64,000 bases of DNA, taken from IMG/VR virus record IMGVR_UViG_3300016476_001378; one strand, 5' to 3'. The notes beneath the pieces were generated by a model, which saw only the letters and a list, made by a program, of their open reading frames with translations, searched no databases and had not been told where the DNA came from. Shown in pieces: positions 2,212 to 54,633 of the stretch. Each line of letters begins with the position of its first letter. The first letter of the stretch is position 1. The stretch is from a virus. Taxonomy: Duplodnaviria; Caudoviricetes. The translations under genes and the position numbers were made by a program.

Positions 2212-2283
2212 AGCGGGAGACGAGATTCGAACTCGCGACTTTCACCTTGGCAAGGTGACACTCTACCACTGAGTTACTCCCGC
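2212..2283 (-). tRNA. tRNA-Gly(GCC)
   Basis: Cloverleaf GCGGGAG...CTCCCGC, anticodon loop TTGCCAA, TTCGAAT T-loop; no encoded CCA. Confidence 0.95.
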
Positions 2284-2287
2284 TTAA

Positions 2288-2360
2288 TGGACAGTAGCGG
2301 GATCGAACCGCTGACCTATGGATTGCAAAACCATCGCTCTCCCAGCTGAGCTAACCGCCC
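2288..2360 (-). tRNA. tRNA-Ala(TGC)
   Basis: GGGCGGT...ACTGTCC-A with G3:U70, anticodon loop TTTGCAA. Confidence 0.93.
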
Positions 2361-2363
2361 TTA

Positions 2364-2431
2364 GGTGGCTTTGGCAGATTAATAAAAAACTAACGTAACA
2401 ATTATGTAATAAAAGTTCTGCCAAAACCACC
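2364..2431 (-). ncRNA. Candidate 68-nt hairpin RNA between tRNA-Thr and tRNA-Ala
   Basis: 15-bp terminal stem GGTGGTTTTGGCAGA/TCTGCCAAAGCCACC around a U-rich loop. Confidence 0.4.
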
Positions 2432-2432
2432 A

Positions 2433-2504
2433 AGCCAGATGCAGGAATCGAACCCGCCACATACGGTTTACAAAACCGTCGTTCTACCGATGAACTAATC
2501 TGGC
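2433..2504 (-). tRNA. tRNA-Thr(TGT)
   Basis: GCCAGAT...ATCTGGC, anticodon arm ACGGT-TTTGTAA-ACCGT. Confidence 0.93.
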
Positions 2505-2537
2505 ATAATTTAATTATACAGTCTTTTTATTTTAATA

Positions 2538-2610
2538 CTGGCCAGGATGGACTCGAACCATCAACCTCAAAGTTAACAGCTTTTTGCACCGCCGATTGTG
2601 CTACTGGCCA
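2538..2610 (-). tRNA. tRNA-Asn(GTT)
   Basis: TGGCCAG...CTGGCCA-G, loop CTGTTAA. Confidence 0.9.
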
Positions 2611-2616
2611 ACATTA

Positions 2617-2687
2617 GTGCGGGAAAGGTTGAACCCTCGGCTTTTGATTATGAGCCAAACGAGCTACCAGACTGCTTCTGCCCCGCG
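2617..2687 (-). pseudogene. Degenerate initiator-type tRNA-Met(CAT)
   Basis: 5' CGCGGGG and C1xA72 mismatch as in tRNA-fMet, loop CTCATAA; lacks the three G-C anticodon-stem pairs and has a shortened T-arm. Confidence 0.6.
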
Positions 2688-2799
2688 ACATTTATTAAAA
2701 TATTATACATTATTATGTGATTAAAATTTAAAAAAATATACATTGAGCTTAAAGGATAATAAATTATTATTGTATAATTTAAGCTATAGGAGATACAAA

Positions 2800-3327
2800 A
2801 TGAAAAAATGTTTGAAATGCAATAATGATTTGCCAAACTTTATAAAAATAGATGGCAAATCCCATAACATAAGTAATAGAAAATTCTGTTTAGAATGCTC
2901 ACCATTTAAAATGCATAATACCAAAAATTTATTAAATCAAGAACTGATACAAACTAAAAAAATATGCCCTAAATGTAAAATTGAAAAACCAATAGAAGAA
3001 TTTTATCGCCGACGGAATAATACGAATTGTTCAGTATATTGTAAATTATGCACAACAACTACAACAACCGAAAGACAACAAAATATAAAACAAAAAGCAG
3101 TTGACTATTTAGGCGGAAAGTGTTCTGTTTGTGACTATAATAAATGTTTAGGTGCTTTAGAATTTCACCATGTAAATCCAGAAGAAAAAGATTTTAATAT
3201 AGCAGAATTAAAACTATCTTCATTTGATAGAATGAAAACAGAATTAAATAAATGTATTTTAGTTTGTGCAAATTGCCATAGAGAAATACATGGAGGCTTG
3301 ATTAAAATATCCCCCAACAAAAGCTAG
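2800..3327 (+). CDS. HNH homing endonuclease with zinc fingers
   Basis: Several CxxC pairs; LEFHHVNP...KC.LVCANCHREIH; AGGAG SD; inserted in the tRNA cluster in the opposite orientation. Confidence 0.88.
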   Translation: MKKCLKCNNDLPNFIKIDGKSHNISNRKFCLECSPFKMHNTKNLLNQELIQTKKICPKCKIEKPIEEFYRRRNNTNCSVYCKLCTTTTTTERQQNIKQKAVDYLGGKCSVCDYNKCLGALEFHHVNPEEKDFNIAELKLSSFDRMKTELNKCILVCANCHREIHGGLIKISPNKS

Positions 3328-3339
3328 GGGATATTTTTA

Positions 3340-3413
3340 CACTCCGAGAGGGATTCGAACCCCCGACAAACAGGGTAGAAACCTGCTACTCTAATCCACT
3401 GAGCTATCGGAGC
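3340..3413 (-). tRNA. tRNA-Arg(TCT)
   Basis: GCTCCGA...TCGGAGT-G, loop TTTCTAC. Confidence 0.92.
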
Positions 3414-3437
3414 AAACATTATTATTTATACAACATA

Positions 3438-3728
3438 TTATGGTGTGATTATCTCCCAAATCGGAAATGTCATCCAACCATTTTTTACAGATATTGTTGT
3501 CTGTTTGAACAGACCTGAAGCCAATGCGTCTTCAGCAATCTCTGCATTCTCAGAGTATGTTTTTGCAAAGAACTGGTTTTCAGCCAACTCAATGTCACAG
3601 TCTAGACTAGTAGAAAGTTTAGTGAGCGGATAGCCATACTCATCTTTTAACAGCACAGCAAGGTTACCATTGCTGTATCGGGCAGTTTCAACATGAGCGA
3701 CACCGTGAGAAGTAGTTTGCATTTTCAT
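3438..3728 (-). CDS. Hypothetical protein (DUF4313-like)
   Basis: YSNGNLAVLL...G.P...LST.L pattern; ATG abuts the promoter motif. Confidence 0.6.
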   Translation of the reverse strand: MKMQTTSHGVAHVETARYSNGNLAVLLKDEYGYPLTKLSTSLDCDIELAENQFFAKTYSENAEIAEDALASGLFKQTTISVKNGWMTFPIWEIITP

Positions 3729-3814
3729 ACTACTATAGAACCACTTGCATACTTTTTAAGAAGAAAACTAATCCTTTGTAGATTTTGGGGGCTCCCCAAA
3801 ATTTTATGGGCCCG
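3676..3814. repeat. About 139-bp direct repeat, copy 1 (copy 2 at 4624-4762)
   Basis: Near-identical segments containing the promoter, the first 17 codons of gene 3438..3728 and the last 8 nt of tRNA-Tyr. Confidence 0.92.
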
Positions 3815-3884
3815 GAGCCGAAGCCCCGCCCGAACGTCCTAAGCCTCGACGGCTTCCTCGTCCAGTTCCCACTCCCAGAAGGAC

Positions 3885-4556
3885 TTAGCGGAAGTCGGTC
3901 TCCTGGGAGAGGCAGACGCTACCGTCGATGCCGTCGAAGGTGACGTGGAAGTCGCAGCCTGGCTCGCCCGTGTCAAGGGTGAAGGCGAGGTCGGGGTAGC
4001 GTGCCACCACGGTGCGGAACCACTGTTCAGGGGAACACCATGCGGTCTCGAAGTCGATGATGAGTTCGCCCTCGTCGATGCGGGAGTCAAAGATGTCGGG
4101 TCTGGAGCAGTCCCACTTCGTACCCCAGTTGGCACACGCCCAGTCGAACCAGTTGGAGTATCCCGTGGCTTCTTTGGCGAGCCAGTTGCCCTCAATGCCC
4201 TGAGCGTAGTCCAGAATCCAGTGGGCGGTTCCGCCCAGTGCCTTGTAGGCTTCGATAATCGCCTTTGCTTGAACCACACCCTCTGCCGACACGTCGGTGG
4301 TGGCGGGCATATCGGGGAACGTGGACTCGCCCTTCTCGCCGTTCAGCATCTGGAGGGCGGTGAGACCCTGCGACTGCACCATGCGGAGCAGTTGCCCCGA
4401 GGTGCGGGAGGGGGAGATGGTGCCATCGAGAACGTCTGGCATCGGGACGAGAGCGTGGAAGGAGAACCCTTCATCTGTCTTGTTGTCGGCGAGAAAAGAG
4501 CGGAGAGCATCAGGCTCTCCCTTAACAACGAGTTTGTTCAGTGCCCAGTTTGGCAT
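3885..4556 (-). CDS. DUF1281/YubB-like ferredoxin-fold protein, GC-rich
   Basis: MPNW..N, NWFDWACANWGTKWD and F.TAWCSP motifs; GC content visibly far above the flanks. Confidence 0.8.
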   Translation of the reverse strand: MPNWALNKLVVKGEPDALRSFLADNKTDEGFSFHALVPMPDVLDGTISPSRTSGQLLRMVQSQGLTALQMLNGEKGESTFPDMPATTDVSAEGVVQAKAIIEAYKALGGTAHWILDYAQGIEGNWLAKEATGYSNWFDWACANWGTKWDCSRPDIFDSRIDEGELIIDFETAWCSPEQWFRTVVARYPDLAFTLDTGEPGCDFHVTFDGIDGSVCLSQETDFR

Positions 4557-4623
4557 GGCTTTGTTTCCTCATGGGAGTGGACTCCCGATACTCTATCCGA
4601 CTTTTGATTTCTTCTGCTTCTTC

Positions 4624-4762
4624 TATCGGGTAGTTTCAACATTAGCGACACCGTAAGAAGTAGTTTGCATATTCATACTACTATAGAACCGCTTGCACAC
4701 TTTTTAAGAAGAAAACTAATCCTTTGTAGATTTTGGGGCCTCCCCCAAAAATTATGGGCCCG
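4624..4762. repeat. About 139-bp direct repeat, copy 2
   Basis: Matches 3676-3814; encodes truncated MNMQTTSYGVANVETTR-stop. Confidence 0.92.
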
Positions 4763-4837
4763 ACAAGATTCGAACTTGTGTAGGCTTACGCCGACGATTT
4801 TACAGACCGCCTCCTTTAGCCACTCGGACACAGACCC
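4755..4837 (-). tRNA. tRNA-Tyr(GTA)
   Basis: GGGTCTG...CGGGCCC-A, loop CTGTAAA, long variable arm. Confidence 0.92.
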
Positions 4838-4846
4838 ATATTTAAA

Positions 4847-4920
4847 CGACCCAGACGGGACTTGAACCCGCGACCTCTGCCGTGACAGGGCAGTGCTCTA
4901 ACCAATTGAGCTACTGAGCC
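4847..4920 (-). tRNA. tRNA-Asp(GTC)
   Basis: Anticodon arm CTGCC-CTGTCAC-GGCAG, G73. Confidence 0.94.
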
Positions 4921-5201
4921 AAAAACTTTAAATTACCATGTTCTTCTTGATATGCTTGTACTGCTTCAAAACCCCATATCACGCCATTCAATTTATCCAT
5001 AACTTGAAGATAACTGTGAATCATACCAAAAAGAGTCAACCATTCATTTTCGGTGTAATTGTAAACTATAGAAACAAACCAGTTACCATCATCATGAGGA
5101 TGTCCACTTGGATACATATTAAATGTAAGTTTGATAGGAGCATAATGTCTATTCATATACTCTATCCTACTTTTGATTTCTTCTGCTTCTTCTATAGTCA
5201 T
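4911..5201 (-). CDS. Hypothetical protein
   Basis: 96-aa ORF with AGGT SD; its stop lies inside the 5' end of tRNA-Asp. Confidence 0.6.
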   Translation of the reverse strand: MTIEEAEEIKSRIEYMNRHYAPIKLTFNMYPSGHPHDDGNWFVSIVYNYTENEWLTLFGMIHSYLQVMDKLNGVIWGFEAVQAYQEEHGNLKFLAQ

Positions 5202-5216
5202 AATTTTAACCTAAAA

Positions 5217-5302
5217 AGGAAAGTGAGAGATTCGAACTCTCGGATGCTTTTGACATCAATTGTTTTCAAGACAATCGCATTAGACCACTCTGCCAACTTT
5301 CC
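5217..5302 (-). tRNA. tRNA-Ser(TGA)
   Basis: GGAAAGT...ACTTTCC, loop CTTGAAA, long variable arm. Confidence 0.92.
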
Positions 5303-5306
5303 CCAG

Positions 5307-5378
5307 TGGGCGGTGAGGGATTCGAACCCCCGACCGATAGTGTGTAAAACTATAGCGCTACCGCTGCGCCAACCGCCC
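5307..5378 (-). tRNA. tRNA-Val(TAC)
   Basis: Anticodon arm ATAGT-TTTACAC-ACTAT. Confidence 0.93.
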
Positions 5379-5599
5379 TAAGCAATCACCCAATCATCTG
5401 CTAAAAAATCTTCAGCATTAAGGCGGAGTGTATCTTGCTCTGAATATTTGATGTCATACTTGACACCTTCGTGTTGATTATACTTAATCATCATGCCAAA
5501 CTTTTTAACATTAGAATCAAAGCAATAAGTAATGTTACAGTTAGCCCTTTTTACAACCTTATTATTTTTCATCTCAATCAGTGCTTCACTAAGTGTCAT
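5378..5599 (-). CDS. DUF2829/Tad2-like small protein
   Basis: MTLSEAL..MK.NK.VKR N-terminus and EDFLADDW C-terminus. Confidence 0.55.
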   Translation of the reverse strand: MTLSEALIEMKNNKVVKRANCNITYCFDSNVKKFGMMIKYNQHEGVKYDIKYSEQDTLRLNAEDFLADDWVIA

Positions 5600-5654
5600 T
5601 TCTACCTCAATATAATAGAATCAAGATTCGATTTTTAAGATGGAAAGTCAAAGA

Positions 5655-5725
5655 TTCTCCAGTAGAGATTCGAACTCCAATTAAAGGCACCAAAAACCTC
5701 TGTCCTACCATTGAACGACCGGAGA
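5655..5725 (-). tRNA. tRNA-Gln(TTG)
   Basis: TCTCCGG...CTGGAGA, loop TTTTGGT. Confidence 0.9.
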
Positions 5726-5798
5726 TAGCCTGTAGGGGTCTCGAACCCCTGGTCTCCTCCGTGAAAGGGAGGCATCTTAACCGCTCGACTAACAGGCC
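5726..5798 (-). tRNA. tRNA-Glu(TTC)
   Basis: Anticodon arm CCTCC-CTTTCAC-GGAGG; abuts tRNA-Gln with no spacer. Confidence 0.92.
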
Positions 5799-5840
5799 CC
5801 AAATTTATATTCGTATGAATATCAAAATATTTATACACTA

Positions 5841-6188
5841 TTAGAAACTAAAATCAAAATATTTACTTCTAGTTCCTATTGACCAATGTTGTCCATTTTT
5901 CATGCCTTGGCCTTTAGTAACCCAGCATCCATTCTTTCGCCTTGTTACAACGTATGTTGGATTTGTTGGATTTTGTGTAAACTCGTATTTTTGTGCATCT
6001 GACATACCATTGTTGTCTACTCGTTCATAGTCATCTGCTTGAAGGAGCAATGTATTCTTGTCAATGATATCAATAACGGTGAATGGATATCTATCGGTGA
6101 ACATTAGTTTTGTTGCTCCCATACCCACTTCGATTTCTGGAGTTTGAGTTTGAAGCATGATGTCGTTGATTAAAGAGCCAGTTTGCAT
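5841..6188 (-). CDS. Conserved phage hypothetical protein
   Basis: PEIEVGMGAT...TDRYPFTVI motif; AAGGA SD and promoter motif. Confidence 0.7.
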   Translation of the reverse strand: MQTGSLINDIMLQTQTPEIEVGMGATKLMFTDRYPFTVIDIIDKNTLLLQADDYERVDNNGMSDAQKYEFTQNPTNPTYVVTRRKNGCWVTKGQGMKNGQHWSIGTRSKYFDFSF

Positions 6189-6256
6189 TTTCGTTTCCTT
6201 ATTCTATTATAGGGAGTGTTTGTATTTTTTAAGATAAATTTTTGGGGGCCAGAGCC

Positions 6257-6288
6257 AGACTCTACAAAGTGTTATCTTTGTAGAGTCT
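6257..6288. repeat. Inverted repeat AGACTCTACAAAG-TGTTAT-CTTTGTAGAGTCT
   Basis: Same core and loop as 5-36, with compensatory changes in the outer arms. Confidence 0.8.
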
Positions 6289-6311
6289 CAATCCTAACAA
6301 CACCCCTGATG

Positions 6312-6968
6312 TTAGGATTCCAGCACATAAGACCAGTATCGGGAGTCTGTATGCCCTTGTTTTGCATCCCAGAACATACAGCGGGCGATATAAGGTGCTG
6401 TATTGATGTTTTTAGAGCGATTAATCCAATCTTGCTCGTTATTTTCATAAACTTTCTTCAAAGTACCGCTATTGCGAACCTCTTTCATGCCGTATAACTG
6501 CATCATGTGAGTATCAAGGCAGACTACCTCTGCTTCATTCGGAAAACACATTTCCAAAGTAAAGGAAACCTTGGTAATGCCGATACCCTTGAGGCGATTA
6601 TTCAAACGGTCACGGAAAGCCGTCCATGTTTCGTCTGCTCCACGATGGAAATCAGCGGTGTTGGACATAAAGTCCTGCATGAAGTTCCAGATGTATTCGG
6701 TGCGGACGTTGAACATACCGCAACGAGCGTCAATGAGCAACTGGCGAAGGGTCTCTTTGTCTTCAGACCACTTGTCGAAATCCTTGATGGCATTGTAGCC
6801 ACGGACGTTGCCTTCCCACGTAGTGTGGATGGAAGTGTATGCGAATAGCCAGCGTCGAAAAATGTCCTCATCGGTTTCTGGCTTGATGCTATTCCAGTAA
6901 TCGGAATAGGTATCAATCTGGCTGGTCGTCATGGAAGAGAAGATGTTTTCAATAAGAGGGGTGTTCAT
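6312..6968 (-). CDS. HhH-GPD DNA glycosylase (Ogg2/8-oxoguanine glycosylase-like)
   Basis: HhH motif LKGIGITKVSF (catalytic-type Lys) followed by VCLDTH (Asp). Confidence 0.65.
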   Translation of the reverse strand: MNTPLIENIFSSMTTSQIDTYSDYWNSIKPETDEDIFRRWLFAYTSIHTTWEGNVRGYNAIKDFDKWSEDKETLRQLLIDARCGMFNVRTEYIWNFMQDFMSNTADFHRGADETWTAFRDRLNNRLKGIGITKVSFTLEMCFPNEAEVVCLDTHMMQLYGMKEVRNSGTLKKVYENNEQDWINRSKNINTAPYIARCMFWDAKQGHTDSRYWSYVLES

Positions 6969-7069
6969 ACTATTATAGAACATCCTGCCCCTTTTTAAGA
7001 TAGATTTTAACCCTTTGTAAATTTTGGGGGGAGGCTCGAAAAAAGGGGCGAGAAACTCACCCCTCTTTT

Positions 7070-7459
7070 TTAGATTTGAATCTTCTGATTGCTCAAGCGT
7101 GTAGGCTTCTTTGTTGAAACCATTGGCTTGTTCGAAAGCGTAGGTGCAACCCGTGGTGCTTTGCTCGAAACCTTAGGGGTCGCCTTGGCAGTTGCCTTAG
7201 CACTGGTCTTCGATTGGACACTGACCGTCTTTGGCTCATCTACACGGACACCGTTGCTGATGTCAAGCAACTGGTGGAGCATCTTGCCCTTGGAGCGGGA
7301 AGTGATGAGAGAAACAACATCGGCAACGCCCGCCTCATCAAGAGAATAACGATACGTTGAACCGCTCTTGCGGAATGTAACATCTACAGTGTTGTCCTGT
7401 GTGTTGACCTGAACACGGGAGGTCATCGTCGAATCGAAATCACTAAAAATAGCCGTCAT
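7070..7459 (-). CDS. KTSC-like domain protein with Lys/Ala/Pro-rich tail
   Basis: ST.TSRV...V.V.F..SG..Y.Y...SKG pattern; histone H1-like basic tail; AGGAG SD. Confidence 0.55.
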   Translation of the reverse strand: MTAIFSDFDSTMTSRVQVNTQDNTVDVTFRKSGSTYRYSLDEAGVADVVSLITSRSKGKMLHQLLDISNGVRVDEPKTVSVQSKTSAKATAKATPKVSSKAPRVAPTLSNKPMVSTKKPTRLSNQKIQI

Positions 7460-7510
7460 TTATTTTCTCCTTACACTATTATAGCAAGTGCATGCTCTTT
7501 TTTAAGATGG

Positions 7511-7589
7511 AAGAGGGTGACAAAGGCAACGCTCGGAGAGCATTTTTTATTATCGGTTTGGGTCTCTGCGGTGTGTCCATCACCCTCTT
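7511..7589 (-). ncRNA. Candidate 79-nt small RNA with its own promoter
   Basis: Starts right after the promoter motif at 7590-7625; AAGAGGGTGA/TCACCCTCTT terminal stem. Confidence 0.45.
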
Positions 7590-7656
7590 ATACTATTATA
7601 GGGGCCCCTTTTAATTTTTAAGATAGAATAGCCGCGCCCCCAGAAATCACAAAGGC

Positions 7657-7809
7657 TTATTTCCCCTCTGCGATTTTCTGAACAAAGTTTTTAATCGTTT
7701 GTGCAGACTTTGCTTTAAAGATAACATTGCCTTGTTCATCTTCTACCCAATAAAACTCTGAATCTTTGTATTGAAACAAACCATGCGACATTGATAAGAA
7801 TTTTCTCAT
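7657..7809 (-). CDS. Small hypothetical protein (50 aa, below the ORF-track cutoff)
   Basis: MRKFLSMSHGLFQYKDSEFYWVEDEQGNV...; AGGAGA SD. Confidence 0.55.
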   Translation of the reverse strand: MRKFLSMSHGLFQYKDSEFYWVEDEQGNVIFKAKSAQTIKNFVQKIAEGK

Positions 7810-7820
7810 GTTAATCTCCT

Positions 7821-8510
7821 TTATGCGGTGATTGCACGGGAACCGTGCAATCCAACCTTCCCACCAGCGGAATAACCTGCACTATAAGCAGATGAACCAG
7901 TGTTTACGCCTAGTGTTTTGCCTGTAGTCAATCTAAACTGACTATAAGCATACCTATCGTTCTCTTTTCTAGCCAAGTCGTAAGGGTTTACAACGATAAG
8001 GGCATTACCTTGTTGTTCACGTACAATCTCTTGTTGTTTTTCAACAAAGCGTTGTTCCAATCGCTTTACCATTCCATTTCGAAATGCATTACCATAAGTT
8101 TTACCTTGGCTACGGTCAAAGTTATTGGACTTTAGATATTCTTTGGTCTCAAAGTCAATCACATTGCAAAGGTAAGTGAACATCATCTTTGCAGTTTCAC
8201 GGTTGGTTTCTTTACCTACAATAATGTAGGTTCCAGTGCCGGGTCGCAGAATGAGATTGCAAAAGTGGGACTTGCAAAGAGCGTGGAGTAGGATAGTCTT
8301 CCAAGTGGGGAATGAACGTCCACCGGGCTTGAAATCTTCATGCGACACATCTTCTTGTTCCGTTGCAACAATCTCAGACATAGACAGATTGTACTTAGCC
8401 AGTAAATCCATTGCCATGCGTGTAGCATTGGTTGCTTCGTTCTCATTCGGGTTATTCCCGCCAAGAGCCAACAGTTTCTGAATCTTTTCAATAATGTTTT
8501 TGCTTACCAT
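7821..8510 (-). CDS. DUF2786-domain protein
   Basis: IIEKIQKLLALG..N.NENEA..A...A..LLAKYNLS. Confidence 0.8.
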   Translation of the reverse strand: MVSKNIIEKIQKLLALGGNNPNENEATNATRMAMDLLAKYNLSMSEIVATEQEDVSHEDFKPGGRSFPTWKTILLHALCKSHFCNLILRPGTGTYIIVGKETNRETAKMMFTYLCNVIDFETKEYLKSNNFDRSQGKTYGNAFRNGMVKRLEQRFVEKQQEIVREQQGNALIVVNPYDLARKENDRYAYSQFRLTTGKTLGVNTGSSAYSAGYSAGGKVGLHGSRAITA

Positions 8511-8563
8511 ACTACTATAGAAAAGACAGATTGTTTTTAAGATAAAAAGGGGGCGGATCTATT

Positions 8564-8606
8564 TTTACGTGCGGTTACGTGCGATTTACGAGCGATTTAC
8601 GTGCGG
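8564..8606. repeat. Four tandem copies of about 11 bp, TTTACGTGCGA
   Basis: tttacgtgcgg ttacgtgcga tttacgagcga tttacgtgcgg, upstream of a promoter motif. Confidence 0.85.
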
Positions 8607-8648
8607 CCCCTTCCCCCCAGAATTTACAAAGGACTAAAAAAGCATGGT

Positions 8649-9089
8649 CTATGCGACCATGCCTTCGTAATAACCGTATATTTCACCAGCGTTGCCAGAT
8701 TGAACCGTGGTGTAGTATCCGTTTACATTAATAAGATGCAAACCACAGACTATCTCACCTGAATCGTAGACACTCCAAATCTTTTCTGGGTTATCATTGG
8801 CAAACTTTGTAATAAAGTCCCAATTATCTGTGTCTTTCTCAATAAAACAGCCCTTGTTTCTATTCAACACATACTTGTCAAAAAATGAATCTTCAGTTGG
8901 AAAATCAATCTCGCCCTCGTCTTCAATCTCATACTTGTCAATGCGAGTGTTATACTCTTCTAGAATGTGAGCCTTGAAATACTTTTTGGCATCATTCTCA
9001 TTGTATGCATAAACATAAACTGAGTTGTCTTCGCCATGGAGGTCGATAAAGTCAAAATAATAACGATGAAGTTTTGCTGTAGTTTCCAT
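8649..9089 (-). CDS. Hypothetical protein
   Basis: 146-aa ORF; ATG abuts the promoter motif. Confidence 0.7.
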   Translation of the reverse strand: METTAKLHRYYFDFIDLHGEDNSVYVYAYNENDAKKYFKAHILEEYNTRIDKYEIEDEGEIDFPTEDSFFDKYVLNRNKGCFIEKDTDNWDFITKFANDNPEKIWSVYDSGEIVCGLHLINVNGYYTTVQSGNAGEIYGYYEGMVA

Positions 9090-9115
9090 ACTACTATAGA
9101 TGGACAGTTTTGTTT

Positions 9116-9421
9116 TTAAGATGGAACTTCTTCTGTGTCAGTGAAAAACAAGTTAATCTTTTGGTTGGTGTTTATAGCGTGTATATACAAACCCTCAAAT
9201 AATTCTGATGTAATTTCATAAAAAGCCCCTAGTAAATTACTACCAATGAATAACCAAATAAAACCAACAACGGGGCCGAAGAAAAAACCAAAGAAATTAA
9301 GTGCTAATAAGAATAAAGTAATTCCCGCAAGAATACACCATAAAATTGCTACATAAATACAAAAAATTGCTTTAATGATTAAGTAAACACTCCAGGCGAA
9401 AATTATTCTTATTGCTTCCAT
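9116..9421 (-). CDS. Membrane protein
   Basis: Long hydrophobic N-terminal two thirds. Confidence 0.55.
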   Translation of the reverse strand: MEAIRIIFAWSVYLIIKAIFCIYVAILWCILAGITLFLLALNFFGFFFGPVVGFIWLFIGSNLLGAFYEITSELFEGLYIHAINTNQKINLFFTDTEEVPS

Positions 9422-9544
9422 GATTTATTATCGGCCCCATTTAATTAAAATTGTATTAGACCTCTATAAGGGTCTATTATTTCTTCTTTTCTCTTTTTAT
9501 TAATAGTCTTAATTAAAATAAAAAAGGGGACTGCTGCGATGATA

Positions 9545-9889
9545 CTAAGTGCTACTACTAACTTCCCTTGTGTTGTCATTATTATTCTCCAGGAAAAATT
9601 TCTTTGTATCGTAGAAGAATTGTTTATCTAATACAATAGCAATCTTAGTGCCTTCAATATTCCCAAGAAAAGTACACGTCATTGTGTCTAACTTATTTTG
9701 AATAAGTACTTGCATTTCTTTATACTTATCCTTGAGATAAATGGAGTTTGTTTGTCTCCCACTACGAATGTCAAATAGAGTACAACTCTTGGCAAATTTT
9801 AGATAATCTACTAGGGTGTATGTAGAGGTGATTTCTTCTGCTGTAAGAGTGTTTAACTCTAGGTTTGGTTCTACGAGTGTTTCTAACAT
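9545..9889 (-). CDS. Hypothetical protein
   Basis: GGAG SD, 114 aa. Confidence 0.6.
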   Translation of the reverse strand: MLETLVEPNLELNTLTAEEITSTYTLVDYLKFAKSCTLFDIRSGRQTNSIYLKDKYKEMQVLIQNKLDTMTCTFLGNIEGTKIAIVLDKQFFYDTKKFFLENNNDNTREVSSST

Positions 9890-9970
9890 TTCACTACTCC
9901 AATGTAATTGTTGTCACTAATTACATAATTTATTATTATAACAGAAATACCTTTGAGAAATAAATAAAAA

Positions 9971-10043
9971 TGGGCGATACAGGATTCGAACCTGTAACCT
10001 TCAAATTATGAGTTTGCTACTCTTACCGTTGAGTTAATCGCCC
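9971..10043 (-). tRNA. tRNA with CAT anticodon (probably Ile2, lysidine type; elongator Met not excluded)
   Basis: GGGCGAT...ATCGCCC-A, loop CTCATAA, no initiator features. Confidence 0.85.
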
Positions 10044-10050
10044 CCCTTTT

Positions 10051-10263
10051 TTAATCGTCGCTGTGTGTTTTTTGTGGTTTGATTTCTACATGGTAAGCCA
10101 CTTTTTCTTCTTCAAAACAATATCTTAATGAATCTAAGAATTCTTTTCTATCATTATAATAAAGTCCCTGAAGCATTTTTACCATCTCTTCTTCTGAAAC
10201 TTCTGAATCTTCATCCGCAGTGATGTCAATATCAAAAGATAAATTTAGTCTGTACTTTGCCAT
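10051..10263 (-). CDS. Hypothetical protein
   Basis: 70 aa; promoter motif at 10289. Confidence 0.55.
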   Translation of the reverse strand: MAKYRLNLSFDIDITADEDSEVSEEEMVKMLQGLYYNDRKEFLDSLRYCFEEEKVAYHVEIKPQKTHSDD

Positions 10264-10404
10264 TTGCTTTTTCCGGAGTTAATAGTTGATACTATTATAG
10301 ACTCTAATGCTCGATTTTTAAGTTCGAATTTAGTCCTTTGTAAATGCTGGCCCTAAGGGGCTCGAAAACTGTTGAGTTATTCGAATTTTTAGAATAAGTG
10401 TTTA

Positions 10405-10477
<73 letters not shown>

Positions 10478-10480
10478 AAA

Positions 10481-10562
10481 TCCCCCAGACCAGACTTGAA
10501 CTGGTACTCCTTGCGGAATAGCATTTTAAGTGCTACGTGTCTGCCGATTTCACCACCGGGGG
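10481..10562 (-). tRNA. tRNA-Leu(TAA)
   Basis: Anticodon arm TAGCA-CTTAAAA-TGCTA, long variable arm. Confidence 0.92.
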
Positions 10563-18901: not shown

Positions 18902-19022
18902 GGTGGGAGAATCTGAGATATGGCGCCCCTCTCCCACCCCTACCAAACTTCAGGCCTTAGGAGCCCATCTCTATAGAGACTGCCGCTTCTGCGACCAAAG
19001 GATGTTCCTGCACACGTTTGGT
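18902..19022 (-). ncRNA. Candidate structured RNA (GC-rich intergenic island)
   Basis: ACCAAAC/GTTTGGT closing stem with internal hairpins, followed by a GGTGGGAGA/TCTCCCACC hairpin. Confidence 0.3.
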
Positions 19023-20119: not shown

Positions 20120-20208
20120 CGGGCAGTCAGGGATTCGAACCCTGGGTGGCATTTAAAAACCACACTCACTTAGCAGGCGAGCGCTTTAGACCTCTCAGCC
20201 AACTACCC
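20120..20208 (-). tRNA. tRNA-Ser(GCT)
   Basis: GGGTAGT...ACTGCCC-G, loop CTGCTAA, long variable arm. Confidence 0.92.
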
Positions 20209-51403: not shown

Positions 51404-52141
51404 ATGAACTTTTCACTTGACACTAAAAAAATAAATTACAAGCCAAGTGTAGTTGTAGCTGTAGCGGGTCATTCCTATACACCTAACTTTGTCTTCAGTT
51501 GGAGTAAATTCACAGTTTCTGTGGCAAATACCCAGAAGATCAACATGACTTACACAAATGCTTATTCGCCAAACATTTACCACTGTAGAAACATTCTGCT
51601 TGGTGGTAACAATCTTGGTGGTACTTATCAGCCACCCTGGGGCGGTAAATTTAATTATGATTACATCATGTTTATTGATACCGACCAAGTCTTTGAGCCA
51701 GAAGATGCCTACCGCTTGATTGATACTATGGAATCCAATCCAAAGATTGATGTTCTTGCTGGTATGTATGTCATGGCTGACAATACTTTGTCTACAGTTA
51801 TTCTTGACTGGGATGAAGAGTTCTTTTCAGAGCATGGACGTTTTGATTTCAAGACACCACGTCAAATGCAGGAACTCGGCAAGGCATCACCAAACGGCTT
51901 GGTAAAGGCTTTCTATGGTGGTCTTGGCTTCTCCATTTTCCGCAAGGGAGTATTTGATAAGTTGGAGTATCCATGGTTTGAGCCTATTACTCACAAGGTT
52001 GGTCGTGGGACAGACCTCATGGGCGAAGATGTTTCGCTATTCTGGAAGCTTAATCAAAAGGGCGTAGATTTCTGGGTAGATCCATTTATCTACGTTGGAC
52101 ATGAGAAGCATCAGATTCTCAAGCCACCAGCTCTCGTTTAA
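51404..52141 (+). CDS. GT-A fold glycosyltransferase-like protein
   Basis: RN, DYIMFIDTD, G.GF..FRKGVF.KL.YPWF, GED..F, VGHEK. Confidence 0.8.
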   Translation: MNFSLDTKKINYKPSVVVAVAGHSYTPNFVFSWSKFTVSVANTQKINMTYTNAYSPNIYHCRNILLGGNNLGGTYQPPWGGKFNYDYIMFIDTDQVFEPEDAYRLIDTMESNPKIDVLAGMYVMADNTLSTVILDWDEEFFSEHGRFDFKTPRQMQELGKASPNGLVKAFYGGLGFSIFRKGVFDKLEYPWFEPITHKVGRGTDLMGEDVSLFWKLNQKGVDFWVDPFIYVGHEKHQILKPPALV

Positions 52142-52172
52142 TCGAAGAAAATAAAACCGCCTTTCGGCGGTT

Positions 52173-52304
52173 TTATTTTTTATGTGAATCAAAGCATTTT
52201 TCAGCTTCAGATTTAAGCAAGTATTGCTTGCCACACTCTTTACAAGCGTAATTCATCACCTGGAGCCAACCCATGCTGTTCTTCTGTACTGTTTTTGTTT
52301 CCAT
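52173..52304 (-). CDS. Small zinc-finger-like protein (43 aa, not in ORF track)
   Basis: YACKECGKQY....EAEKCFDSH. Confidence 0.55.
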   Translation of the reverse strand: METKTVQKNSMGWLQVMNYACKECGKQYLLKSEAEKCFDSHKK

Positions 52305-52321
52305 GATAACTAATTATACAG

Positions 52322-52352
52322 AAAGCCCCCTTAAATTAATAAGGGGGCTTTT
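52322..52352. terminator. Intrinsic terminator
   Basis: AAAGCCCCCTTA-AATTAA-TAAGGGGGCTTT. Confidence 0.7.
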
Positions 52353-52379
52353 ATTTCTGAAGCCTGCGCGACTTCACTC

Positions 52380-52533
52380 AACCAACCGTTTCAACACCCT
52401 CCTCAAGGCCCCATCTCTCCTTGATAGCAAGCGAAATAGCTTAAAATACTTGCCTTAGAGTTTGTTAAAATAACCTCGGTGTAATAAGGAGTCTCGCAAT
52501 AAGAGGGTGGCAAGACTCAACCGACAATTGGTT
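52380..52533 (-). ncRNA. Candidate pseudoknotted multi-stem RNA
   Basis: Closing stem AACCAATTG/CGGTTGGTT; hairpin GAGTCTTGC/GCGAGACTC whose loop CACCCTCTT pairs with distal AGGAGGGTG; G-U pairs valid only on the minus strand. Confidence 0.6.
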
Positions 52534-52597
52534 CTTTCTGTTTGCTATTGTACTCATTCAAGAATATTACAAGTTTTTTTGAAAAAACCTGCTTATC

Positions 52598-53200
52598 TTA
52601 CTCGCTAATTTTTCTTTCAGGTGGAGTAACGATATTATCAATGACTCCATAAGCTTTAGCTTCTGTAGCACTCATCCAATAATCTCTCTCACAGTCTCTT
52701 TTGACTTTCTTTTTATCTTGCTTTGTATGCTTCGACAGAATGTCTAAAAGTTGGTCATAGAGCTTGTTTGTTTCTGCAACTTGAATGTTGATGTCTGCAG
52801 CAGTGCCTTGGAATCCACTAGAAACTTGGTGAATCATGACTCTTGAATGCTGTAGGCAGCTCCTTGTTCCAGTGCCTCCAGCGAGTAGAACAGCTCCCAT
52901 AGATGCCGCAGATGCAAGGCAGGTTGTATTTACAGGAGAATCCATGAGTTGCATGACATCGTAGATGCCAAGTCCAGCACTAACACTACCTCCAGGACTA
53001 TTGATATAGAATTCAATTGGGAGACCCTTGGAACCCTTATCATGGTCAAGAAATAGGAATTGGGCGATGATCACACCTGCGGTCTGATCATTTACTTCAT
53101 CGTTAAGAATAACGATTCTGTCTTTAAGCAAACGGGAGAAGAGGTCATAAGAACGCTCTCCTCCCAATGGTGATTGTTCAACAACGTATGGTATTAACAT
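52598..53200 (-). CDS. clpP: ATP-dependent Clp protease proteolytic subunit
   Basis: YDLFSRLLKDRI, YINSPGGSV, AASMG (Ser), MIHQ (His), RDYWMSA.EA..YG.ID. Confidence 0.96.
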   Translation of the reverse strand: MLIPYVVEQSPLGGERSYDLFSRLLKDRIVILNDEVNDQTAGVIIAQFLFLDHDKGSKGLPIEFYINSPGGSVSAGLGIYDVMQLMDSPVNTTCLASAASMGAVLLAGGTGTRSCLQHSRVMIHQVSSGFQGTAADINIQVAETNKLYDQLLDILSKHTKQDKKKVKRDCERDYWMSATEAKAYGVIDNIVTPPERKISE

Positions 53201-53206
53201 ACCATA

Positions 53207-53503
53207 TTATTGTTGATTAATTTGGTTTTCCGCAATGAAATTTTCTAAATTAGATTTAGCTGTGTTTAAATTTTCCATCATGCTAGAAACTTCAGGCATG
53301 TCAGGCTTCATCTGCAGAATGTTTAAATTCAATTCAACAGCCCTCTTTAAATTTATGGCAGCGTCTATACCACCTTGAGGGTTGGAAAGAAATTTATTAA
53401 CTGCATCCAGAGTTTGAGTAAAATCTTTAATAGAATCCGCTTCTGCGTATCTTTGATTTTTCTCAAGCGCTGAAATAACTTTTGACAATTTAATTAAACT
53501 CAT
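53207..53503 (-). CDS. Hypothetical protein with N-terminal helical tag
   Basis: LIKLSKVISALEKNQRYAEADSI. Confidence 0.6.
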   Translation of the reverse strand: MSLIKLSKVISALEKNQRYAEADSIKDFTQTLDAVNKFLSNPQGGIDAAINLKRAVELNLNILQMKPDMPEVSSMMENLNTAKSNLENFIAENQINQQ

Positions 53504-53505
53504 AA

Positions 53506-54633
53506 TTAACCCTTGACCCAGAATTCAATAACATTATTGTCTATACCATAAGTATCTGCAATAGTTACACTTATTATACTGGTAAATGTTGATGCACCTG
53601 TAGATGTAATGTCAAAAAGTGTATCTTGCAATGTGTCAACTGGCATAGAGATAGTAGAAGAATAAGTTGTTCCATCAGCTCTACCTAAGACCAAAGTTAC
53701 AGGGAAAGTGGTAATGCCAGAAGGCATAGAGCCAGATGTAACATCAAATTTGTTCTTCATTACTAAAGCAGAATTTAATGAGATGGTCTTGTCTGCTACA
53801 AAAGAGCCCCATGCTCCAGAGGTTTTAGTAACAGAACCTAATTTGACAACTAATTCTTCATTCATAGATGAACGCCAAAGTGTTCTAAAGTTTTCTGACC
53901 ATACTGTGCTTACCAATGCATAAGCATCTTTAAAATAGGTTTTGAAACTTGCTCCGTACTGGGCGCTATAAAATGTATTCAAACCACTACAAACACTACC
54001 AAAGCTTGAATTTAATGTAATAGGAAGATTGATTTCAAGAGCTCTAGCTGTATTAATAAGAGTTTTAGCATTGTCAAATTCAGATTCAGTTTTCAAATCA
54101 TCAAAGCCTTTTCTAAATTCCTTAAGAAGGAATGAAGAAGTAGAACCTGATGGATACTCGCTAAATACGAGAGGTGTACTGCCAAGAGTTGGGTTTCCAC
54201 CTGACTGCAAGAAGAATACTTTATTCTCATTGACGGAACCCGACATTACTCTGACCTTAGAGAAATCTAAAATCTCAGAAGATGTGTCAAAATCAGATGC
54301 TCTTGTCAAAACATAAGGTGTGATAGTTGTAAGGATGTAGATGCCATTTTCATAACCATTGCTTTGATTCTTGACAAGAATTCTCTTACCAATGTCGAGT
54401 GACTGATTTAAAATGATGGTATCAACTGTTAAGTAACTTGCGCCAGTGATTGTTTTTGCACTGTTGTTATAAGTGCCTGTAAGCGCAGCGGTAGTAGCAA
54501 GTACAACGTCGTCAAGGTCGTATGTTGTAACATCTTCTGTCTGTGAGCGCAAAAGATTGTCAGCATCGCCAAGATAAGTTGTTAATGTGATGATTTGATT
54601 AAGATCTGCAGCAGAAGCATTACTGAATGACAT
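53506..54633 (-). CDS. Probable virion structural / tail-fibre-related protein
   Basis: V..ATTA.L ... RILVKNQS...ENGIY......LTRASDFD module; Ser/Thr-rich. Confidence 0.7.
   Translation of the reverse strand: MSFSNASAADLNQIITLTTYLGDADNLLRSQTEDVTTYDLDDVVLATTAALTGTYNNSAKTITGASYLTVDTIILNQSLDIGKRILVKNQSNGYENGIYILTTITPYVLTRASDFDTSSEILDFSKVRVMSGSVNENKVFFLQSGGNPTLGSTPLVFSEYPSGSTSSFLLKEFRKGFDDLKTESEFDNAKTLINTARALEINLPITLNSSFGSVCSGLNTFYSAQYGASFKTYFKDAYALVSTVWSENFRTLWRSSMNEELVVKLGSVTKTSGAWGSFVADKTISLNSALVMKNKFDVTSGSMPSGITTFPVTLVLGRADGTTYSSTISMPVDTLQDTLFDITSTGASTFTSIISVTIADTYGIDNNVIEFWVKG

Follow-up and report, generated by a model that had tools for sequence, protein, structure and literature searches.

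The folded RNA downstream of clpP and its relatives

Which kind of element lies between a phage clpP gene and the short ORF that follows it is the question raised by the minus strand of the window, i.e., the whole 64,000-nucleotide stretch of viral DNA analyzed here. A preliminary description, made from the letters alone, placed at positions 52322-52560 a non-coding RNA with several helices, compact and strand-specific, that ends in a terminator. The coordinates and the strand are correct, and the multi-helix RNA is borne out by compensatory changes across ~9 clades of relatives. The comparisons reported below indicate that a conserved, intricately folded RNA of ~200-240 bases located after a phage clpP gene is real.

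The RNA lies on the minus strand between clpP and a 43-residue zinc-ribbon ORF. The clpP gene (52598..53200, minus strand), which always precedes the RNA, encodes a 200-residue protein assigned to Pfam PF00574 (E = 7.6e-64). The zinc-ribbon ORF (52173..52304, minus strand; C-x2-C ... C-x3-H) is the downstream neighbor of the RNA in 8 of ~9 clades and is devoid of a Shine-Dalgarno sequence. Its product does not return any family above threshold in Pfam, nor any in PHROGs or the ESM Atlas, and its homologues of 43-45 residues (e.g., L031:3372-3506, L034:1841-1978, and L060:2380-2514) make it a conserved protein encoded behind the RNA by the majority of clades. Its gene is in turn followed, in clades E, F, and H, by a gene of 242-248 residues of no known family. 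Beyond the zinc-ribbon ORF of the window lies a convergent glycosyltransferase-like gene, and a second strong hairpin, AAAACCGCCGAAAGGCGGUUUU (52142-52180), which looks like a bidirectional terminator, is found between the two. On the other side of the RNA, a 375-residue gene (53506-54633, minus strand) is located two genes upstream of clpP, with a 98-residue ORF in between. A domain of its product matches PHROGs of head-decoration, tail-fiber, and virion proteins, and clpP and the RNA may therefore belong to a late/structural module; this ClpP could be a head-maturation protease.

ClpP relatives displaying 60-99% identity are numerous in the ENA, JGI, and Logan assemblies. In the contigs with a ClpP 79-99% identical to that of the window, a gap of 260-450 nt harboring the RNA directly follows clpP; a relative at 77% has a post-clpP gap of matching size. 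A two-motif scan of the JGI metagenome collection returned 15 further loci. The homologues total 22 distinct sequences, that of the window included, distributed in ~9 clades and all on the clpP strand. The 21 other sequences come from jumbo-phage contigs of lake metagenomes, in which the RNA is invariably located right after clpP. With R1, a covariance model based on three clades, all 22 sequences are recovered (58-210 bits), with matches confined to the clpP strand. Its match in the window covers helices P1 to P6 (52355..52536, minus strand; 77.9 bits, E = 1e-17) and is the sole one, and the model does not report a second copy in the window or in the relatives' loci examined.

The distribution of the RNA appears to be narrow. 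The clpP clades at 64-70% identity (L027, L028, and L062) have an IMPDH or a convergent gene after clpP and are devoid of the RNA. The phage group with a ClpP in this identity range (L027, L028, L029, and L062) displays the gene order HSP20, clpP, IMPDH, DUF1599, and ECF-type sigma factor, with no RNA behind clpP. Among cultured phages, blastn does not return any close DNA relative; the nearest ClpP in the phage collection, uncultured records included, is <60% identical, and the best named cultured phage by ClpP is Staphylococcus phage SpP (49.5%). Exact-motif scans of IMG/VR returned nothing, or chance matches within coding regions, and the ClpP relatives found there, at most 51% identical, lack the RNA. 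In the GTDB genomes, the two-motif pattern returned only chance matches in GC-rich coding DNA, and a bacterial homologue is therefore not apparent at this stringency. Judging from these searches, the RNA family seems to be restricted to a single group of jumbo phages, uncultured and mostly from freshwater.

Several lines of evidence support the fold and its strand. The minus strand of segment 52322-52600 folds at -87.5 kcal/mol (z = -4.1), as compared with z = -2.6 for the plus strand, and the comparative structure of the window RNA reaches -74.4 kcal/mol versus -79.7 for the minimum free energy structure. Compensatory base changes are observed in P1, P1a, P2 (three clades), P3, P4, P6, and the terminator, and P5 and three loops are invariant across clades. 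The variable 5' arm was not alignable with MAFFT. As P1 was placed wrongly by the covariance model in three clades, a script served to tabulate P1, P6, and the terminator. In the model-based alignment of the core helices, 96% of the cells are paired versus 32-52% with the partners slid, and the covariation score observed for the core (P3 and P4) is reached by 0 of 500 shuffles. G.U pairs occur in P1, P3, P4, and P6, and the fold therefore works on the minus strand only, as proposed in the preliminary description on the basis of wobble pairs in four helices. The latter also reported no convincing ORF, and indeed no ORF is conserved among relatives. Furthermore, a 1-nt indel (GGG versus GGGG) is found in the invariant core, and the length of one RNA domain, the 5' arm, ranges from 13 nt to >60 nt, which argues that the RNA is not coding. 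Finally, the region had been described as GC-richer than other intergenic DNA: its GC content (0.40-0.45) equals that of the nearby coding DNA and exceeds that of the flanks (0.30-0.36) only modestly.

Helices, loops, and long-range pairings

Helix P1 joins the 5' strand AACCAAUUG (52525..52533, minus strand) to the 3' strand CGGUUGGUU (52380..52388). It forms a contiguous helix of 6-10 bp in 22/22 sequences, with compensatory changes in 4 columns, and the P1 initially proposed (52533-52525 with 52388-52380) is thus retained by both sequence and comparison. The ensuing 5' domain (52476..52524, minus strand) comprises P1a (UCGGU/ACCGA; 52524-52520 with 52480-52476), which encloses the hairpin P2 (GAGUCUUGC/GCGAGACUC; 52518-52510 with 52497-52489, loop 52509-52498). 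Between clades, P1a changes from GUCGG/CCGAC to GUUGA/UCAAC and P2 from GGAUAGC/GUUGUCC to GAAGCGG/CCGUUUC, both covarying among clades B, C, and D. P2, too, had been correctly drawn, and it covaries in three clades. This 5' arm is variable: it shrinks to a 13-nt loop in L064 and exceeds 60 nt in other clades.

The conserved core (52389..52470, minus strand) is a three-way junction in which P3 closes the hairpins P4 and P5. P3 pairs UUUUAACA..CUCU with GGAG..UGUUGAAA (52470-52463 and 52460-52457 with 52402-52399 and 52396-52389) and exhibits both-side changes in 8/10 pairs. The nucleotides of the junction are invariant, and its strands are just 0-3 nt long. A stem GAG-GUUA/UAAC-CUC, part of the preliminary description, is not conserved and gives way to P1a and to the covarying P3. 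P4 (GGCAAGU/GCUUGCU; 52426..52454, minus strand, with 52454-52448 paired to 52432-52426) carries the 15-nt loop L4 and displays both-side changes in 3/7 pairs; the 3' part of L4, GCUAUUUC, is nearly invariant, with two single-base variants. P5 (UCAAGG/CCUUGA; 52403..52424, minus strand, with 52424-52419 paired to 52408-52403) bears the loop L5, AGAGAUGGGG, and is near-invariant in all clades. No covariation is observed in P5, its changes keeping the pairing (G-C to G.U, U-A to U.G) or touching the terminal pair. P4 and P5 correspond to the stems first noted as GGCAAGT/GCTTGCT and TCAAGG/CCTTGA, both upheld by sequence and comparison. Between P1 and the terminator, the P6 hairpin GAAGUC-GCGCA-GGCUUC (52359..52375, minus strand) covaries in its stem, in which two columns switch between A-U and G-C, always with the loop GCGCA; the P6 segment AGUCGCGCAG is invariant except for one inserted C in L064.

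Regarding long-range contacts, a 9-bp pseudoknot had been proposed between CACCCUCUU (52501-52509), in the P2 loop, and AGGAGGGUG (52395..52403, minus strand). This pairing exists in the sequence and is strong (-13.6 kcal/mol), but it does not hold as a conserved feature. It is found only in the clade of the window, in which the sole relative, L051, is identical at the site, and AGGAGGGUG overlaps the inner 3' strand of P3. The chance of finding 9 contiguous pairs between one loop and ~150 nt is estimated at roughly 1 in 10. In a swap test on the other clades, cognate pairs of arm and P3 strand perform no better than non-cognate ones, i.e., no co-evolution is seen, and a duplex search with shuffles in these clades was uninformative. 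The CACCCUCUU/AGGAGGGUG pseudoknot may be a lineage-specific extra, and the comparison indicates that it is not a defining feature of the RNA family.

Another pairing, PK1, is more likely to be the long-range contact. It associates the leader AAUAGC (52544..52549, minus strand), as the proposed 5' strand, with the complementary 3' part of L4, GCUAUU. Both strands, AAUAGC(A) and (U)GCUAUU, are invariant: six pairs never change, and the seventh is CG in 15 sequences, UG in 1, and UA in 1. The variable pair lies within clade B, where the series C-G (L039), U.G (L008), and U-A (L011) is suggestive only; it amounts to a single compensatory event, which is equaled by 57 of 500 shuffles. The leader also overlaps a -10-like TACAAT, and it could instead be part of a -10 box, which would place it outside the RNA. 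Four clades have a 1-nt deletion inside the TACAAT hexamer with AAUAGCA still invariant, which fits an RNA pairing better than a promoter. L4 has an alternative partner in L5 (CUAUUUC/GAGAUGG, 7 bp, both strands invariant); this complementarity could be intramolecular, or be replaced by PK1. Weighing these sequence data, we give the formation of PK1 a somewhat better than even chance.

Ends of the transcription unit

Conservation begins at the clpP stop codon. The block that follows (52564..52592, minus strand) comprises GCAGG, a T6-C-A7 palindrome, and TAATAT; it is kept in all clades and occurs only once in the window. The block is a candidate promoter, with the pattern GCAGG-N17/18-(T/G)AAT; alternatively, it could form a hairpin or be a processing site at the RNA level. 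No enrichment is observed in the window for the looser motif CAGG-N17-19-KAAT (14 found versus 14.2 expected) or for the T4-late-type TATAAATA. From the clpP stop to the RNA, reading of the sequence reveals no hairpin resembling a terminator, and a simple terminator scan of 51900-53300 found none, the same scan having missed the RNA's own terminator. Without a terminator in between, the RNA should be at least co-transcribed with clpP.

At the other end, the intrinsic terminator AAGCCCCCUUA/UAAGGGGGCUU (52323..52350, minus strand) forms an 11-bp hairpin of ~ -20.8 kcal/mol followed by UUUCUGU. The terminators of the relatives range from -20 to -27 kcal/mol, comprise at least 6 different sequences, and are each followed by a U-rich tract; the strong terminator attributed to the RNA end is thus seen in the window and has counterparts in its relatives. 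Immediately downstream, a promoter-like box, TGTATAAT (52313..52320, minus strand), is located 8 nt before the ATG of the zinc-ribbon ORF. A TGTATAA(A/T) box is present 6-8 nt before the ATG in every clade with this ORF, and is absent in the clade without it. The same box is found a few to ~30 nt upstream of tRNA genes at 2513, 3425, and 5830 (minus strand), and probably represents the -10 element of a promoter class serving tRNAs and near-leaderless mRNAs, its overall enrichment being weak (12 found versus 9.3 expected). Having its own box, the zinc-ribbon ORF would be a separate, nearly leaderless unit. Furthermore, clade C (L012-L014) possesses a complete RNA and no downstream gene, which, together with the separate box of the ORF, argues against a cis-regulatory leader. 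TGTATAA(A/T) boxes are located at 2513-2520, 2702-2709, 3425-3432, 5830-5837, and 52313-52320, and the tRNA genes, numbering at least 15, are clustered at 2212-10562 and 20120-20208; these boxes and tRNA genes all belong to the minus strand.

Possible functions and likeness to known RNAs

The absence of a downstream gene in clade C and the ORF's own box point to a discrete RNA at the 3' end of the clpP unit. We give an even chance to the locus being the gene of a discrete, compactly folded non-coding RNA of a new family, and consider the proposal, drawn from sequence comparison, that it acts in trans by binding a protein to be about equally balanced between true and false. Its transcription would run in the same direction as that of clpP, the RNA forming the final portion of the clpP unit, and might in addition start at the conserved block upstream of the RNA; the transcript of ~200-240 nt would stop at the strong intrinsic terminator. 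In the predicted fold, P1 joins both ends of the body, the variable arm formed by P1a and P2 branches from P1, P3 closes the invariant three-way junction with P4 and P5, and P6, with its GCGCA loop, is a separate hairpin preceding the terminator. The leader AAUAGC would probably pair with GCUAUU of L4 and lock the core into a pseudoknot. Stems that covary freely, a dispensable arm, and fixed loops together with one fixed stem suggest an RNA presenting fixed surfaces to a partner. The folded RNA may thus act in trans, L5 (AGAGAUGGGG), L6 (GCGCA), and the P5 stem, all invariant, being presented to a partner that is probably a protein or an RNA, and most likely a phage or host protein. The 43-residue zinc-ribbon protein and ClpP are possible candidates. 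Complementary target sites for L5 or L6 are not found in the window outside the RNA gene itself. A Shine-Dalgarno mimicry of AAGGAGAGAUG (AAGGAG in P5) is unlikely, as most genes in the window do not have a Shine-Dalgarno sequence. L6 contains the palindromes CGCG and GCGC, through which two RNA molecules could kiss, although this is only an idea. A rather unlikely possibility is that the core is an RNA machine of a new class, either a self-cleaving or ligand-binding fold acting in the processing or control of the clpP transcript or a self-assembling RNA. In its self-assembling form, it could multimerize via the palindromic GCGC of L6 and the complementary L4 and L5, resembling the phi29 pRNA rings and the ROOL and GOLLD assemblies. 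If the core is indeed such a machine, the constant link with the phage ClpP protease would be functional and not accidental.

The arrangement of the locus, in which block, structured RNA, terminator, and ORF follow one another and the ORF is present in 8 of ~9 clades, recalls that of a cis-acting leader or attenuator. The fold, or P6 as a boxB-like protein site, would then control terminator read-through into the zinc-ribbon gene and, in some clades, as far as the 242-residue gene behind it. P6, with an invariant GNRNA-type pentaloop ~10 nt before the terminator, occupies a position relative to it that recalls that of boxB in the lambda nut site, and a role in cis would also be compatible with the strict linkage to clpP and with a location flanked by a possible promoter and a terminator. 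However, clade C keeps a complete RNA with no gene to control, the ORF is preceded, just behind the terminator, by a TGTATAAW box of its own, and no upstream segment is seen by eye to track the changing terminators, the sole match being a trivial GGGGC/GCCCC. We therefore regard this explanation as unlikely. The same observations weigh on a riboswitch-like aptamer, in which the P3/P4/P5 junction with docked loops would bind a ligand. Its tuning-fork-like shape, with two hairpins lying side by side, 7 bp of complementarity between their loops (CUAUUUC/GAGAUGG), and invariant junction nucleotides, is what makes it conceivable. Yet a pocket would have little space among junction strands of 0-3 nt, P1 is not overlapped by any expression platform, the terminator competes with no aptamer strand, and there is no consistent regulated gene, clade C having none at all. 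More generally, a terminating riboswitch or attenuator would have a competing anti-terminator strand evolving with the terminator and a consistent downstream gene, neither of which is found. An aptamer is accordingly a very unlikely reading.

The RNA might alternatively be a self-cleaving ribozyme or processing module that excises itself from the clpP transcript near the leader, giving the clpP mRNA a defined 3' end and freeing the RNA. An invariant core, a variable periphery, and a pseudoknot constitute the usual pattern of small ribozymes, and the RNA, which is located toward the 3' end of the clpP unit, is not separated from clpP by a terminator and shows conservation from the clpP stop onward. 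On the other hand, no Rfam ribozyme family is matched even at E = 10, no hammerhead-type core motif is seen, the ~110-nt core is larger than most self-cleaving classes, and no cleavage site is marked in the sequence; self-cleavage is thus quite improbable. Signals of the DNA type, namely the A/T palindrome next to clpP and the promoter-like boxes, are what would be expected from a DNA element involved in replication, packaging, or protein binding. This reading, together with that of a chance structure, is contradicted by compensatory changes in six helices, by G.U pairs that keep the helices and become A-C mismatches on the other strand, and by model matches on the clpP strand only. The strand-specific covariation appears to have largely refuted the DNA element, and we consider a locus other than an RNA gene to be extremely unlikely.

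Returning to the discrete RNA favored here, searches against known families indicate that it is a new one. Rfam 15 (4227 models) was applied to the window at gathering thresholds and to 52150-52750 permissively, at E <= 10. The former scan reports only tRNAs and DUF3800-VII, both elsewhere; the latter returns only sub-threshold noise driven by the terminator, the best score being 26.7 bits versus a 49-bit threshold. No family was thus matched, be it raiA, 6S, or self-cleaving ribozymes, for which a check had been suggested, or pRNA and Y RNA/YrlA. ARAGORN finds no tRNA or tmRNA in 52100-52700, and the initial statement that the RNA cannot be assigned to a known family stands with respect to Rfam 15, tRNA, and tmRNA. 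A literature search returned nothing on an RNA after phage clpP. A 2023 catalogue of phage structured RNAs that mined IMG/VR includes unnamed motifs (PMC10690425), among which an earlier listing of the RNA is conceivable. The RNA is probably new at the family level, and its kind of function may prove familiar.

Several phage and bacterial RNAs offer points of comparison. The phi29-type pRNA is also phage-encoded and of similar size, with paired ends, a three-way junction, and two complementary loops, and has a comparable late/structural gene neighborhood, given the 375-residue gene with head-decoration matches. In contrast, no Rfam pRNA match is obtained, the likeness is one of shape only, and no sign of ring formation or of a link with the packaging motor is seen. 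Moreover, pRNA is not known outside small phi29-like phages. CpxQ and SroC are bacterial small RNAs derived from 3'UTRs, which are short, weakly structured, Hfq-dependent, and act by seed pairing. Like them, the RNA shares its terminator with the upstream gene, has none of its own upstream, and may be released by processing; unlike them, it comprises ~200 nt, is highly structured and probably pseudoknotted, and has no target site in the window. The antitermination RNAs boxB of lambda nut and put of HK022 are elements of 15-70 nt without a 150-nt folded body. As with them, the element described here is a phage RNA upstream of a terminator, and its P6 carries, as does boxB, a conserved five-base G...A loop on a covarying stem. 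In contrast, one clade here has nothing downstream to antiterminate, and the downstream gene has a promoter-like box.

The lake giant phages are abundant and almost wholly uncultured, and their non-coding RNAs are largely uncharted. The RNA bears the marks of a working molecule: its stems change with pairing kept, three loops and one stem are fixed in ~9 clades, a peripheral arm is dispensable, and its place after the ClpP protease gene is constant. As a new family, it is a target for structure probing, cryo-EM, and partner hunting, and its study may shed light on protein turnover or late gene expression in these phages. The closest parallels in kind are the orphan structured RNA motifs, such as raiA and the DUF3800 RNAs (Weinberg et al. 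2017, PMC5737381; PMC10690425), which share the same covariation-based definition. These motifs also have an invariant core and a variable arm, and are phage-carried and terminator-bounded. The present RNA differs from them in having neither a sequence nor a structure match to Rfam 15 and in not being found in the IMG/VR copy searched. The DUF3800-VII RNA match of the window is located at 18937-19022 on the minus strand (53.7 bits versus a gathering score of 36.2).
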